Source: Candidatus Eiseniibacteriota bacterium
Lineage (GTDB): Bacteria; Eisenbacteria; RBG-16-71-46
Assembly: GCA_963717505.1 (NCBI GenBank)
Contig: OY970342.1
Coordinates: 3,264,001 to 3,328,000, forward strand
Length of the DNA: 64,000 bases
Reading direction: 5' to 3'
This document shows positions 59,778 through 64,000 of the stretch, piece by piece; within the stretch, counting starts at the first letter, position 1, and every line of letters starts with the position of its first letter. Made by a program: the position numbers and the translations under genes. The notes below the pieces were generated by a model. That model was not told where the DNA came from, did not search any database, and worked only from the letters and a program-made list of their open reading frames with translations.

Positions 59778-59935
59778 GCGGCGAGATCTCCCTTGGGTCT
59801 CGACGGGGTTTGCAGGACATCACCGCCGTGGGCCGGCGGCCGCGCACTCTATCGCACGCGGGCGGGTCTGAGATAGATTGGCGTCCTGGCGGCCGCGCAC
59901 CGCAAACCGTGCGCCGCCCAGGAAAGGAACCCGAC

Positions 59936-60700
59936 ATGAATCGACGACAGGCCCTCAGAAACCTCGCACTCGGATCCGCGGCGGTGGCGCTGGCCGGCGC
60001 CCAACGTGGGTTCGCCGACGCGCCCGCCACCCACGCAGCCGCCTCGAGTCCGCAAGCCGCGCCCGCGGCCCCGACCGCCGCGGGACCGTTCACGGTGCCA
60101 GCGCTCGGCTACGCCTTCGACGCGCTCGAGCCCCATCTCGACGCCCAGACCATGCAGATCCACCACGACAAACATCACGCGGCCTACGTCACCAACCTCA
60201 ACAAGGCGGTTGCCGGCCGCAAGGAAGTCGAGGGCTGGAGCGTCGAACGGCTGGTTCGTGAGCTGACCGCGGTTCCGGAGGACATTCGCCCGGCGGTGCG
60301 CAATCACGGCGGCGGACACTGGAACCACTCGCTGCTCTGGACTTCGCTCAAGAAGGATGGAGGCCGCGAGCCGGACGCGGATCTCGCCAAAGCGGTCGGC
60401 GCCGCGTTCGGTAGCTTCGAGACCTGCCGCGAACGTTTCCAGGCGGCCGCCCTCGGGGTGTTCGGCAGCGGTTGGGCGTGGCTGTCGACCGACGCGAAGG
60501 GCGTGGTCCAGATCGAGACATCGCCCAACCAGGATTCGCCGTTGAGCTCGGGGCGCGTGCCGCTGATCGGGGTCGACGTCTGGGAGCACGCGTACTACCT
60601 CAAGTTCCAGAATCGGCGCGCCGACTATCTCGCCGCATTCGCCAATGTCATCGACTGGAGCGTAGTTTCGTTGCGCTACCGACAGGCGATGCAGGGCTGA
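59936..60700 (+). CDS. sodA: Fe/Mn superoxide dismutase with Tat signal
   Basis: 'NRRQAL' twin-Arg; 'HHDKHH', 'NHGGGHWNH' and 'DVWEHAYY'. Confidence 0.9.
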   Translation: MNRRQALRNLALGSAAVALAGAQRGFADAPATHAAASSPQAAPAAPTAAGPFTVPALGYAFDALEPHLDAQTMQIHHDKHHAAYVTNLNKAVAGRKEVEGWSVERLVRELTAVPEDIRPAVRNHGGGHWNHSLLWTSLKKDGGREPDADLAKAVGAAFGSFETCRERFQAAALGVFGSGWAWLSTDAKGVVQIETSPNQDSPLSSGRVPLIGVDVWEHAYYLKFQNRRADYLAAFANVIDWSVVSLRYRQAMQG

Positions 60701-60712
60701 CGCGGAACGCTC

Positions 60713-62059
60713 CTGGCCGCGAACCACGAACCTCCGCCGGGGGACCTGCGACGGGTCCTCAGCCTGTGGGACGCGACCTGCGTCGTGGTCGGCGCGATCA
60801 TCGGCGTCGGCATCTTCTTCACCCCGAAGGACGTCGCTCAGGTCACCGGCAGCCCGGGTGGAGCGCTGACCGCGTGGATCCTGGGCGGCGTCATCGCATT
60901 GCTGGGCGCGTTCACCTTCGCCGAGCTGGGCCGGCTCCGCCCGGTGGCCGGCGGCCAGTATCACGTGCTGCGCGACGCCTACGGCAAGCCGGCGGCCTTC
61001 CTCTTCGTGTTCTGCAACCTGACGGCGGTGCAGGCGGGCGCGGTCGCGATCATCGCGATCCTGTGCGCGCAGAATCTGGGAGTGGCGCTGCACGGGGCCG
61101 ACCCGTCGGGACGCTGGGTGACGCTGGTGGCGGCAGTACTCACCTGGGCGCTGGTTGGCGTCAACGTCCTCGGCGTGCGCGCGGGCGCGCGGCTCCAGGA
61201 TTCGACCGTGATCCTCAAGCTCGTGACGCTCGGCGCACTGGTGGTTCTCGCGGCCGTGGTCGACCCGGGAACGCCGCGGCCGTCACCCGCGACGGCTGGG
61301 GTCGCGCCTCTGGGATTCTCCGCGCTGTTCGCCGGCGTCACGTTGACCCTGTTCGCCTACGGCGGCTGGCAGCAGGTGCTGTGGGTGGCGGGCGAGGTGG
61401 TCGACGCTCGCCAGGCCGTGCCACGGTCCATCGTGCTCGGCGTCGGCATCGTGGTGGTCGCCTATCTTGCCGCCAACTGGGCCTACCTCGACTTGCTCGG
61501 CTTTCTCGGCGTGCGCGAGTCGAACGCGCTGACCGCCGACGCGTTCTCGGTGTGGAATCCAGGGATCGGACGGCGGCTGGCGGCCGCTGGGGTCGCGCTC
61601 TCGGCGTTCGGAGTGCTCAACGCCCAGTTCCTGACCGGGCCTCGCCTGACCTGGGCCATGGCCCGCGAAGGCCAGTTCTTCGCTCCGTTCGCCCGCTTGA
61701 GCCCCCGGTTCTCGACGCCGGTCGCCGCGATCCTGCTGCTCGGCCTGCTCGCGACCGCACTGATGCTCGGCCTCGGCTTGAATCGCACGGACCTGCTGAC
61801 CACGGGCGTGGTCGTGGTCGATGCCGTGTTCTTCGCACTCACCGGGCTCGCCTTGCCCGTGCTCAGGCGGCGCACGGCCGCCGACCGACTCGGGGCCGGC
61901 TGGGTGTCGTGGGCCGCGATCGGGTTCGCAGCACTCGAGCTGATGGCGATCGCCGGTTCGTTGCTCCAACGGGACGTTCGCTGGGTGGCGCTCAGCGGGT
62001 TGGCGTGGATCGCCGTCGCGGCACTCGTCTGGTTCTTCTGGTTTCGCCGGAGCCGCTAG
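60713..62059 (+). CDS. APC-family amino acid permease (start uncertain)
   Basis: 'LRRVLSLWDA..VVGAIIGVGIF', 'FAEL...AGGQY' and 'FAYGGW'; the family-like N-terminus extends upstream of the called GTG at 60785. Confidence 0.85.
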   Translation: MAANHEPPPGDLRRVLSLWDATCVVVGAIIGVGIFFTPKDVAQVTGSPGGALTAWILGGVIALLGAFTFAELGRLRPVAGGQYHVLRDAYGKPAAFLFVFCNLTAVQAGAVAIIAILCAQNLGVALHGADPSGRWVTLVAAVLTWALVGVNVLGVRAGARLQDSTVILKLVTLGALVVLAAVVDPGTPRPSPATAGVAPLGFSALFAGVTLTLFAYGGWQQVLWVAGEVVDARQAVPRSIVLGVGIVVVAYLAANWAYLDLLGFLGVRESNALTADAFSVWNPGIGRRLAAAGVALSAFGVLNAQFLTGPRLTWAMAREGQFFAPFARLSPRFSTPVAAILLLGLLATALMLGLGLNRTDLLTTGVVVVDAVFFALTGLALPVLRRRTAADRLGAGWVSWAAIGFAALELMAIAGSLLQRDVRWVALSGLAWIAVAALVWFFWFRRSR

Positions 62060-62129: not shown

Positions 62130-62900
62130 CTACGCCGTCAGCGATCTTCCCAGCGCGTCCAGTCGCTCGGTCCAGTAGACCTTCATGCGCGCAGCGGACT
62201 CCTTGTCGGGCAGCTTGCCGTGCTGGATCTGCGCCGTACTCTTGCCGTCGCCTTTCGCGATCAGCCAGACCTCGACCGAACTGCCGTCTTCCCACGTCAG
62301 GCGCACCGATTTGTTCGCGGTCGCTTTGCGTACCGCGAGCCGAACGCGCGGCAGCCATTTTGCCCGCCCGCGCGCTTCAGCGAACGCCTCGTACAACGCT
62401 CCGACCGGCACCGGGAAGGTCCGGCTCTTGCTGGCTTCGAACGCGCCGCCCCGTCGCTGGCCAACCTCGCGCAGGCCGCGGATGCGCTCGTAGCCGACCG
62501 TGACGGCCTGGGCCCACCACCCCGGGACACCGTAGGTTTCATGGACGTAGGTGGCGATCTTTCGATGGGGCCAGTCGTAGGCCTTGGCGTAGTCGAGCGA
62601 CTTGACCCACTTGCCCCACGCACATCCGGTCCTGGTCTTGAGCGTGGCATCGCTCACGCCCGCGACCTTGGCGTAGTCGGCAGGTGAAACGCGGGTGAGA
62701 TTCGCGGCGGGAGGGGCCTTCTTCGCGCCGGCGCCCCGAGTCGTCACGGGAACGGACTTTCGAGCGGCGCTGACCTTCGGCGTCGTGGAACGGGCGGATT
62801 TCGGGGCATTGAGGATTTGCGCGCGGGCGGCGGTGTAGGACTCGCCCGTCTTCTGAATGCGCCGGCGCACGAGGCGCTTGAAGTCTTTTTGGGTCGGCAT
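62130..62900 (-). CDS. Hypothetical protein: basic N-terminal peptide, DUF4287-like helical domain, SRPBCC/AHSA1-like C-terminus
   Basis: AAGGA RBS; 'LKTRTGCAWGKW...HGWWAQ'-type segment (here 'YGVPGWWAQAVTVGYE'); C-terminus 'SRTFPVP..LYEAF...IQH..L......K.YW...L'. Confidence 0.7.
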   Translation of the reverse strand: MPTQKDFKRLVRRRIQKTGESYTAARAQILNAPKSARSTTPKVSAARKSVPVTTRGAGAKKAPPAANLTRVSPADYAKVAGVSDATLKTRTGCAWGKWVKSLDYAKAYDWPHRKIATYVHETYGVPGWWAQAVTVGYERIRGLREVGQRRGGAFEASKSRTFPVPVGALYEAFAEARGRAKWLPRVRLAVRKATANKSVRLTWEDGSSVEVWLIAKGDGKSTAQIQHGKLPDKESAARMKVYWTERLDALGRSLTA

Positions 62901-63064
62901 TGATGGATCCTTCTGGTTGAGCCACGGCCGCGCGCCCCCCAGCGGCGACGCTCCGAGGCGTCACCAAAAGTCTCGCATGCCGATCCGGGAGTTTGCCTCC
63001 CTTTGCCTCACGAGGATCCCTGCTGGGGAGGGATCGATGAGGTTGGGCGTGGACGATCGCCGAG
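62901..63064 (-). ncRNA. Putative structured cis-regulatory leader RNA with pseudoknot
   Basis: Three hairpins, plus a 7-nt loop exactly complementary to a downstream segment, lie between a promoter and the RBS (see findings). Confidence 0.5.
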
Positions 63065-63098: not shown

Positions 63099-63208
63099 GG
63101 GAAGATCGGGGGCAGGAAGCGGGTGCGCCGCCGGTGCTAACATCCGCCGGTCGACCCCAACCGCCAACCCAGACCCGGGCGCATCGCCCGCTTCATTCGA
63201 GGCCATCC

Positions 63209-63721
63209 ATGAGCACATCCATGAGCCCTCCCCGAACCATCTCGGAGTCGTTCCTGACCGAGCTCGATTCGGAGATGCCGACCACCCGCCGGCTGCTCGA
63301 GCGCGTCCCGAGCGACCGTGGATCGTGGAAGCCGCACCCGAAATCGTTCTCGCTCGGCCACCTGGCTCAACTGGTGGCACGGATGCCGGGCTGGCTGACC
63401 TTGACCATGAAGCAGACCCAGCTCGACCTGAGTGGCGCCCCCGCTTATTCGCTCGAGACCACGGAGACGCTGTTGTCCGAGTTCGACCGGTTGGTGAAGG
63501 AAGCCCGTGAAGTGCTCGCCGCCGCGAAGGACGAAGACTATGCGATTCCCTGGTCGCTGGCCGCGGGCGGCCATGTGCTGTTCACGCTGCCCAGACTTGC
63601 GGTGATGCGCCAGAACATCAACCATCTCATGCACCACCGCGGGCAGCTCACGGTCTACCTGCGATTGCTCGACGTGCCTTTGCCGTCGATCTACGGACCC
63701 ACGGCCGACGAGAAGTGGTAG
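63209..63721 (+). CDS. DinB/YfiT family protein
   Basis: 'WKPHPKS.SLG.LA.L' and 'NHLMHHRGQLTVYLRLLD.PLPSIYGP'. Confidence 0.88.
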   Translation: MSTSMSPPRTISESFLTELDSEMPTTRRLLERVPSDRGSWKPHPKSFSLGHLAQLVARMPGWLTLTMKQTQLDLSGAPAYSLETTETLLSEFDRLVKEAREVLAAAKDEDYAIPWSLAAGGHVLFTLPRLAVMRQNINHLMHHRGQLTVYLRLLDVPLPSIYGPTADEKW

Positions 63722-63771: not shown

Positions 63772-64000
63772 ATGAGCATCACAATCCACGTTCCGGGGGC
63801 GTTGCGCGACCGTTGCGGCGGCGCTTCCCAGCTCACCGTGTCCGCTCCGAGCGTGCGCGCCGCGCTCGACCAGCTGGAACTGAGTCACCCGTCCTTGTAT
63901 TTCGGCATCTGCGACGAAACCGGCGCGGTCCGTCGCCACATCAACGTTTTCGTCAACACATCCAACGTCAGGGACGGGGCCGGGCTCGAAACACCGCTGT
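63772..64000 (+). CDS. MoaD/ThiS ubiquitin-like protein (truncated by window end)
   Basis: Manual translation: MSITIHVPGALRDRCGG...VRRHINVFVN...GLETPL. Confidence 0.8.
   Translation, partial: MSITIHVPGALRDRCGGASQLTVSAPSVRAALDQLELSHPSLYFGICDETGAVRRHINVFVNTSNVRDGAGLETPL

Follow-up and report, generated by a model that had tools for sequence, protein, structure and literature searches.

A widespread family of kissing-loop leader RNAs that precedes genes encoding a shared N-terminal protein module

Introduction

Translational riboswitches built around a pseudoknot or kissing loop (cobalamin, ZTP/pfl, guanidine-II, SAM-II/V, and preQ1-II/III) lie in 5′ leaders, adopt conserved multi-helix folds with long-range contacts between two sub-domains, and take the ribosome-binding site into a helix tied to the sensor fold. 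Autoregulatory leaders, such as the ribosomal-protein S15 or L20 pseudoknots and the threonyl-tRNA synthetase operator, lie ahead of the gene for their proposed protein partner, with a pseudoknotted fold that overlaps the Shine–Dalgarno sequence and start region and with translational feedback as the expected outcome. Here, we describe a leader RNA that shares these features with both groups. It lies in a 64,000-nucleotide stretch of DNA (the window, analyzed at its full length) from Candidatus Eiseniibacteriota bacterium, assembly GCA_963717505.1, contig OY970342.1, positions 3,264,001 to 3,328,000, in which an earlier note made from the sequence alone had drawn a pseudoknotted leader on the minus strand at 62901–63064.

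The RNA differs from the riboswitches above, with which it was compared through Rfam models, in that it matches no Rfam 15 model and that what its genes have in common is an N-terminal protein module and not a pathway. It differs from the autoregulatory leaders in that the putative binder is a 30-residue module found on five unrelated protein architectures rather than a ribosomal or translation protein; it is also larger than most such leaders and spans many phyla.

One preprint aside, full-text literature searches yielded nothing relevant on this module or on RNA motifs tied to its accompanying domains. That preprint, a survey of prokaryotic noncoding sequence space with a genomic language model, describes in the passages on its cluster 566,452 a noncoding motif without annotation that covaries and lies immediately upstream of unannotated proteins containing a YndB-like fold (bioRxiv 10.64898/2026.10.21.760802). 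The protein encoded in the window also has a YndB/AHSA1-like domain, which is C-terminal, whereas those passages call the YndB-like domain N-terminal. They give no sequence, taxa, or structure for comparison and mention neither an N-terminal module, a kissing loop, nor a start-site helix, and cluster 566,452 may or may not be the RNA described here. The family is uncatalogued in the sense of having no Rfam 15 match, and the word undescribed carries the caveat of this 2026 preprint as far as its passages on the cluster go. New here are a start-site helix with covariation, a near-obligate coupling to the N-terminal module, the kissing-loop form of the pseudoknot, and a long-range closing helix (P1).

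Results

Comparative analysis defines a leader RNA with a kissing loop

The RNA occupies the gap between a DinB-family gene (63134–63721, plus strand) and an ORF of 256 amino acids (62130–62900, minus strand), and would form the 5′ leader of the mRNA for the latter. Coordinates are window positions, and those of the RNA fall from 5′ to 3′ on the minus strand. Folded as a single sequence by RNAfold, the leader reached −80.4 kcal/mol (z = −2.13; 6 of 200 shuffles folded at least as well), and its first two hairpins were reproduced. Because this is only modestly better than shuffled sequence, it is the comparison with related genomes that carries the case for a structured RNA. Of 60 relatives examined, four genomes, one from each of four other genera, have a copy 79–81% identical over ∼180 nt, and 12 further genomes gave short, weak matches only. 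The proteins encoded behind the four copies are 62–72% identical to that in the window; at ∼80% nucleotide identity, the element is thus conserved more strongly than its gene. Similarity in the five-way alignment starts abruptly at GGCG (63061), with none upstream. This 5′ GGCG (63061–63058) also marks the start of conservation in the wider family, where the four positions are G, G, C, and G in 88–89 of 89 sequences and the alignment breaks down upstream.

A first covariance model was built from five sequences and a second (R2) from 74, and covariation was evaluated in alignments of 74 sequences (A4), 93 rows (A5, including two weak antisense matches), and 80 metagenome rows (A7, an independent set). 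The model underlying A4 held only helices P2, P2a, P3, and an 8-bp hairpin drawn in the earlier note; P1, P5, and the kissing loop were absent from it, so their counts in A4 were not fitted to those helices. The model to which A5 and A7 were fitted contained P1–P5 and lacked the kissing loop and the start-site helix P6. In A4, 93.8% of cells form standard pairs, compared with 37–58% when the 3′ partners are slid by one to three columns, and 24 of 36 pairs change on both sides, in 276 cells as compared with 20–36 after sliding. None of 500 shuffles reached the observed pairing and covariation values, a count that, like the Wilcoxon tests of Shine–Dalgarno pairing, overstates independence because the sequences are related. 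Values for A5 (92.8% paired, 28 of 36 pairs changing on both sides) and A7 (93.0%, 23 of 36) are similar, and again none of 500 shuffles reached them.

The resulting model comprises six helices (P1, P2, P2a, P3, P4, and P5) and a loop–loop contact, with P6 pairing a linker with the start region. In its 5′ part, the near-invariant junctions GCCCAA and CAAAGG connect P2/P2a and P3, and its 3′ part consists of P4 and P5; the two parts are connected by two long-range contacts, P1 and the kissing loop. P1, which closes the domain, pairs CCACG (63052–63048) with CGUGG (62926–62922). Its cells are paired at 87.0% in A4, 87.7% in A5, and 86.6% in A7, and its middle pair occurs as A-U, G-U, G-C, U-A, and U-G. 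P2 (CCUC, 63042–63039, with GAGG, 63009–63006) is 99–100% paired, with U-A changing to C-G, and encloses P2a (GAUCCCU, 63035–63029, with AGGGAUC, 63021–63015), in which all seven pairs change on both sides and which is capped by loop L2 (CCCCAGC, 63028–63022). The earlier note had drawn this arm with one further P2 pair (CCUCA, 63042–63038, with UGAGG, 63010–63006), and the arm lies where the note put it and covaries. The hairpin that the note placed next, GGGAG-GCAAA-CUCCC (P3, 63001–62987), follows the conserved junction CAAA (63005–63002) and is likewise 99–100% paired; GGGRG/CUCCC becomes GGAGG/CCUCC in some lineages.

In the 3′ part, the 8-bp hairpin of the earlier note (GGUGACGC/GCGUCGCC, 62965–62944) survived as its inner five pairs, GACGC-CUCGGA-GCGUC (P4, 62962–62947), all of which change on both sides, with 83–85% of cells paired and a variable length; its outer three pairs compete with the local stem of P5. 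A proposed pairing of the downstream GGCG with the 5′ CGCC failed, its cells being paired at 73.2%, equal to shuffles, with no change on both sides. The GGC instead pairs locally with the GCC just before GCUGGGG, forming P5 (62946–62934), which is 93.8% paired in A4 and in which all three pairs change on both sides. A possible 5′ hairpin, P0, would pair the initial GGCG with an invariant CGCC (63049–63046). The same four pairs occur throughout, which makes covariation uninformative for P0, and a fifth candidate pair cannot form in 50 of 85 sequences. RNAalifold further proposed that GGAUC, downstream of P3, pairs with GAUCC close to the start codon, a pairing that looked inconsistent by eye among the first five sequences.

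GCUGGGG (62943–62937), recognized in the earlier note as the exact reverse complement of the first loop, is itself the loop of P5 (L5), and the pseudoknot is for this reason a kissing loop. The L2–L5 contact of 7 bp is 92–99% paired over the three alignments and covaries in each. Alignment of homologous leaders, which the note had suggested as a check, returned compensated variants, namely CCCCGAC/GUCGGGG, CCUCGGC/GCCGAGG, CCUCAGC/GCUGAGG, CUCACGC/GCGUGAG, and CCGUCC/GGACGG. One genome (G131) has two copies of the leader, L037:1501–1662 (−) and L038:1501–1640 (+), one ahead of a DUF4287-START gene and the other ahead of a BtrH_N-DUF4872 gene. The kissing loops of the two copies, CCCCAGC/GCUGGGG and CCGUCC/GGACGG, differ and are mutually incompatible, as if avoiding cross-pairing.

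A predicted helix covers the ribosome-binding site

The 5′ strand of P6 is supplied by the linker that separates P3 from P4 (62986–62963), and RNAfold and RNAalifold pair this strand with 62917–62895 in the translation initiation region. The latter contains ACCAGAAGG (62917–62909), the Shine–Dalgarno sequence AAGGA (62912–62908), and AUGCCG (62900–62895). In the minimum-energy fold, CUUUUGGU of the linker (62970–62963) pairs with ACCAGAAGG, and CGGCAU (62982–62977) is complementary to AUGCCG at the start codon. Among family members, the dinucleotide beside CCUU in the linker (CCUU-NN) matches that beside AAGG before the start codon (NN-AAGG) with full complementarity in 34 of 46 classifiable genome sequences (UG/CA in 19, CG/CG in 11, and UC/GA in 4) and in 31 of 44 classifiable metagenome sequences, with three to four dinucleotide types over both sets; a further 45 genome and 34 metagenome sequences, in which one or the other anchor word is missing, were left unclassified. 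By duplex prediction for 82 members, at least four of the five Shine–Dalgarno bases are paired in 58, with a mean of 3.82 of 5 bases paired with the linker as compared to 3.02 with shuffled linkers, and all three start-codon bases are paired in 41.

P6 crosses P1, which implies either a second pseudoknot or alternative states. For the leader in the window, an energy model limited to nested pairs gave −72.6 kcal/mol with P6 and −61.6 kcal/mol with P1, a difference of 11 kcal/mol. A sub-type linked to DUF1835 genes in Actinomycetota (L061, L116, L101, L057, L078, L081, L119, and L179) has a longer P2 (CCUCCGG.../...GGAGG) and carries GUCGUCGAUCG in the linker in place of CCUUUG; inspection by eye and duplex prediction match this to a different ribosome-binding region, GGGAGACGA. 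Judged from these sequences, this would be a third version of the start-site helix.

The leader lies directly before the start codon in nearly all members, and no terminator-like site was found in a site scan. A conserved, structured 5′-leader domain is accompanied by an expression platform coupled to the fold, in the form of the covarying linker/Shine–Dalgarno helix. We consider it likely that the RNA acts on translation start, and infer that its default state is closed and its output is control of translation initiation. Conservation exceeding that of the gene, a sharp 5′ boundary, a covarying fold that includes a pseudoknot, and a covarying helix over the ribosome-binding site all bear out the cis-regulatory RNA that the earlier note had inferred.

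The RNA is coupled to a short N-terminal protein module

Directly after the RNA, codons 1–31 of the 256-amino-acid ORF (62900–62808, minus strand) encode the module MPTQKDFKRLVRRRIQKTGESYTAARAQILN. A module of consensus M-(P/T)-x-x-K-D-F-K-R-x-V-R-x-R-M-x-K-T-G-E-S-Y-T-x-A-R opens the ORF right after every intact copy of the leader. Among genome loci, it was detected by a regular expression behind 86 of 91 copies; two of the other five are cut by the end of the locus or contig, one has a gene frameshifted inside the module, and two are truncated remnants of the RNA. Metagenome loci were fetched with a pattern drawn from the RNA only, after the idea of coupling had been formed. There, the regular expression found the module after 71 of 80 copies and reading of the frames added five, while three copies lie at contig ends and one is fused to an unrelated gene fragment, such that 76 of 77 evaluable copies precede a module.

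Three leader copies have no module gene behind them and look like decayed or rearranged remnants: L103 is truncated to its 5′ half, L085 stops after the kissing-loop partner, and L221, from a metagenome, runs into a LysR-like gene fragment. At L036:1501–1660 (+) in genome G158, the leader is intact and the gene is frameshifted within the module; either the RNA has outlived the gene or the assembly is in error.

Behind the RNA and module, the proteins have several architectures: DUF4287 with AHSA1/START (the majority, including the window), DUF1835, BtrH_N with DUF4872, three Clp_N repeats, and proteins with no Pfam match. In a sample of 151 genomes across the phylum, tblastn with the module alone and the RNA model matched the same 10 loci in the same nine genomes, the extras being one weak module match without RNA and one RNA with a frameshifted gene. 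Six DUF4287-START paralogue loci from the same bacterial family begin at the DUF4287-like domain and have neither module nor RNA. Among five actinobacterial genomes, five of six module-like genes carry the RNA or its pattern and the sixth, a weak match, does not; one genome gave no match with this query. The RNA therefore occurs with genes that encode the module and not with paralogues that lack it, the pattern of an autoregulatory leader.

All 82 of 82 module sequences keep the same K, R, R, T, G, E, and Y, although the codons used for these residues differ synonymously, and mean entropies at codon positions 1, 2, and 3 are 0.66, 0.47, and 1.14. Invariant residues with varying codons indicate that selection on the module acts on the protein and not on RNA pairing. 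In an AlphaFold2 model of the window protein (58 homologues, mean pLDDT 90.5), the module is predicted as two helices, residues 4–18 and 22–31, joined at the conserved G-E-S. It is followed by a low-complexity linker (approximately residues 32–72) that is modeled with low confidence and varies in length, and then by a helical, DUF4287-like domain and a START/AHSA1-like fold, for which the best Foldseek matches were AHSA1/START proteins, including YndB. The window protein itself gave a weak AHSA1 match, and its relatives match DUF4287 and AHSA1. The module matched no Pfam or NCBIfam family and gave no usable protein-atlas match; ∼535 proteins of 140–448 amino acids in a large protein collection carry it (E ≤ 0.001).

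The family is widespread and matches no Rfam model

With the first covariance model, the RNA was found in 5 of 89 genomes of the same family and in 10 of the 151 genomes sampled across the phylum (11 loci). A degenerate pattern from the two invariant junctions located at least 120 stretches in species-representative genomes and at least 120 in metagenome contigs; as these are lower bounds, the family is both larger and of wider range than the set examined here. Model R2 matched 91 of the 99 genome loci and all 80 metagenome loci offered to it. The eight genome loci missed comprise one GC-rich chance match to the pattern, in Actinomadura (L060), one weak module-like gene, and the six paralogue loci. 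By the titles of their records, which are those of metagenome-assembled genomes, the genome loci belong to Gemmatimonadota, Acidobacteriota, Actinomycetota (including Frankia, Pseudofrankia, Actinophytocola, and Enteractinococcus), Planctomycetota, Chloroflexota, Dormiibacterota, and Krumholzibacteriia, and confirmed loci span at least seven phylum-level groups. R2 also gave antisense matches of 24–26 bits over the true copies at L036:1513–1659 (−) and L037:1502–1650 (+), which probably reflect partly self-complementary GC-rich helices.

At gathering thresholds, Rfam 15 had no match in the 64-kb window, and a permissive search of 601 nt around the element returned noise only (E = 0.87 and 1.8). 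No Rfam family matched at the leader of 20 other member loci, where the lone match was a tRNA elsewhere in the locus, and permissive searches of one actinobacterial and one Solirubrobacterales-type member again returned noise only. No Rfam ribozyme model matched the leader in the window or at the 20 loci. The earlier note had not recognized the element as a named riboswitch, and in Rfam 15 neither this copy nor 22 other members match a family. We regard it as nearly certain that the leader belongs to a widespread family of structured RNAs and that this copy is real and structured.

Promoter region and neighboring genes

A sigma-70-like promoter had been placed ahead of the element in the earlier note. 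A consensus promoter scan found no sigma-70-type site there, although TTGTTT (63098–63093) and CATAGT (63075–63070) stand on the minus strand 17 nt apart, the second ending 8 nt before the element, and similar TTG, A, and T positions recur at a fixed distance in the family. When 89 members are aligned on the invariant GGCG, enrichment is seen for T at −37 to −35, for A at −12 (39 of 89), and for T at −8 (47 of 89). A promoter ahead of the leader is plausible on these sequence grounds.

The divergent neighbor at 63134–63721 (plus strand) matches Pfam DinB and DinB_2. Three further plus-strand ORFs were assigned by eye: 59810–60700, which may encode an Fe/Mn superoxide dismutase with an N-terminal export-type signal; 60785–62059, a possible amino-acid permease with many membrane helices; and 63772–63999, an ORF that continues past the end of the window and of which the start resembles a small sulfur-carrier protein of the MoaD/ThiS type. 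The source genome holds only one copy of the element, which rules out a repeat or mobile element.

Discussion

The strict link of the RNA to a single N-terminal protein module leads us to lean toward a protein partner, and co-inheritance over five architectures, combined with the lack of the RNA in paralogues without the module, is what marks an RNA and its protein partner, for which reason feedback is the explanation that we favor. Under translational feedback, the folded RNA would block ribosome loading via P6 over the Shine–Dalgarno sequence and start site, and the module would bind its own leader and thereby set how firmly the start site is closed. That the partner of the leader is the basic two-helix module of its own product, borne on a flexible linker, is offered tentatively, with a probability that we place a little short of even.

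Several observations weigh against this explanation. The putative RNA-binding role of the module derives from its basic composition, its modeled fold, and its co-occurrence with the RNA, and co-occurrence may have a simpler cause in common descent of the 5′ end of the gene (promoter, leader, and first domain) with swapped C-terminal domains. Two weak module-like genes, L180 and L189 (53% and 46% identity), have no RNA. A large RNA with near-invariant junctions in many phyla resembles a metabolite aptamer more closely than it does most protein-binding leaders. Support for P6 is moderate: the mean duplex z is only −1.6, shuffled linkers still pair 3.0 of 5 Shine–Dalgarno bases, and an exact 6-nt complement of the start-codon context is present in the linker of only 11 of 80 sequences scored, all among the 28 with a CGAUGC context. 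Because such exact complements are rare, start-codon pairing is claimed only for many members. In P1, the middle position is unpaired in 20–23 sequences per alignment.

Some of these observations would be at home in an orphan small-molecule riboswitch, in which the P1/P2/P3 junction and the kissing loop would form a ligand pocket, ligand would shift the balance between P1 and P6, and the module would reflect common ancestry. A complex fold of ∼140 nt with two pseudoknot-type contacts, near-invariant unpaired junction nucleotides, occurrence in at least seven phylum-level groups, and an integrated helix that sequesters the Shine–Dalgarno sequence are all as expected of such an RNA, and P1 and P6, which cross, could be its alternative states. 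However, the regulated genes have no metabolic or transport theme and share only the N-terminal module, there is usually one copy per genome, and the functions of the genes point to no candidate ligand. We know of no validated riboswitch class whose genes share a module rather than a pathway, and we rate a riboswitch as a serious but minority prospect. The leader might instead be recognized by some other conserved component of the cell, for example the ribosome, a tRNA, an RNase, or a global RNA-binding protein, with an unrelated job for the module. This reading would fit the strong sequence conservation over phyla, which is natural for a universally conserved partner. It leaves unexplained why the RNA is restricted to module-bearing genes and absent from module-less paralogues, no Rfam family of that type matches, and we consider it improbable.

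The leader might also be structured without sensing anything, acting in constitutive damping of translation, in mRNA stability, or as a thermometer, or it might be a self-cleaving ribozyme. That the most stable predicted fold closes the start site agrees with a non-sensing leader, but a simple hairpin would be enough for damping or temperature sensing, whereas the conserved junctions, kissing loop, and P1 point to a specific three-dimensional fold; with no known ribozyme family matching among the Rfam models, this group of explanations seems quite improbable. Nor is it credible, except as the faintest of chances, that there is no RNA element and that a small upstream coding frame, or an operator or promoter acting at the DNA level, accounts for the conservation. 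ORFs can indeed be drawn over the region on both strands of this GC-rich DNA; the substitutions, however, are compensatory across helices rather than codon-patterned, the loops carry indels of any length, and the strand-specific model scores 169 bits on the sense strand here, as compared to the 24–26 bits of antisense matches elsewhere.

Returning to feedback by the module, a more elaborate form of it can be envisaged, in which leader and module constitute a portable sensor cassette acting on translation. The module would bind the kissing-loop leader of its own mRNA, possibly in cis during synthesis, and keep the start site closed, until occupancy of the C-terminal domain by small molecules or partners pulls the module off the RNA; the interchangeable C-terminal domains would be START/AHSA1, Clp_N, BtrH_N-DUF4872, and DUF1835. 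We hold this form to be speculative and rather doubtful. If true, it would represent an RNA-level counterpart of one-component transcription regulators, distributed over many soil phyla.

It is now rare to find uncatalogued structured RNAs with such covariation over Gemmatimonadota, Acidobacteriota, Actinomycetota, Chloroflexota, Planctomycetota, and candidate phyla. This family comes with a likely output, closing of the ribosome-binding site, and a testable partner is suggested by the way it is linked, one to one, with a short module borne by unrelated proteins. With the covariance model, hundreds of leaders can be annotated in genomes and metagenomes from soil. Should the module bind the RNA, the pair would be a new, portable RNA–protein feedback device; if it does not, the leaders would constitute a new class of orphan riboswitch, the ligand of which would give function to DUF4287, DUF1835, and DUF4872.

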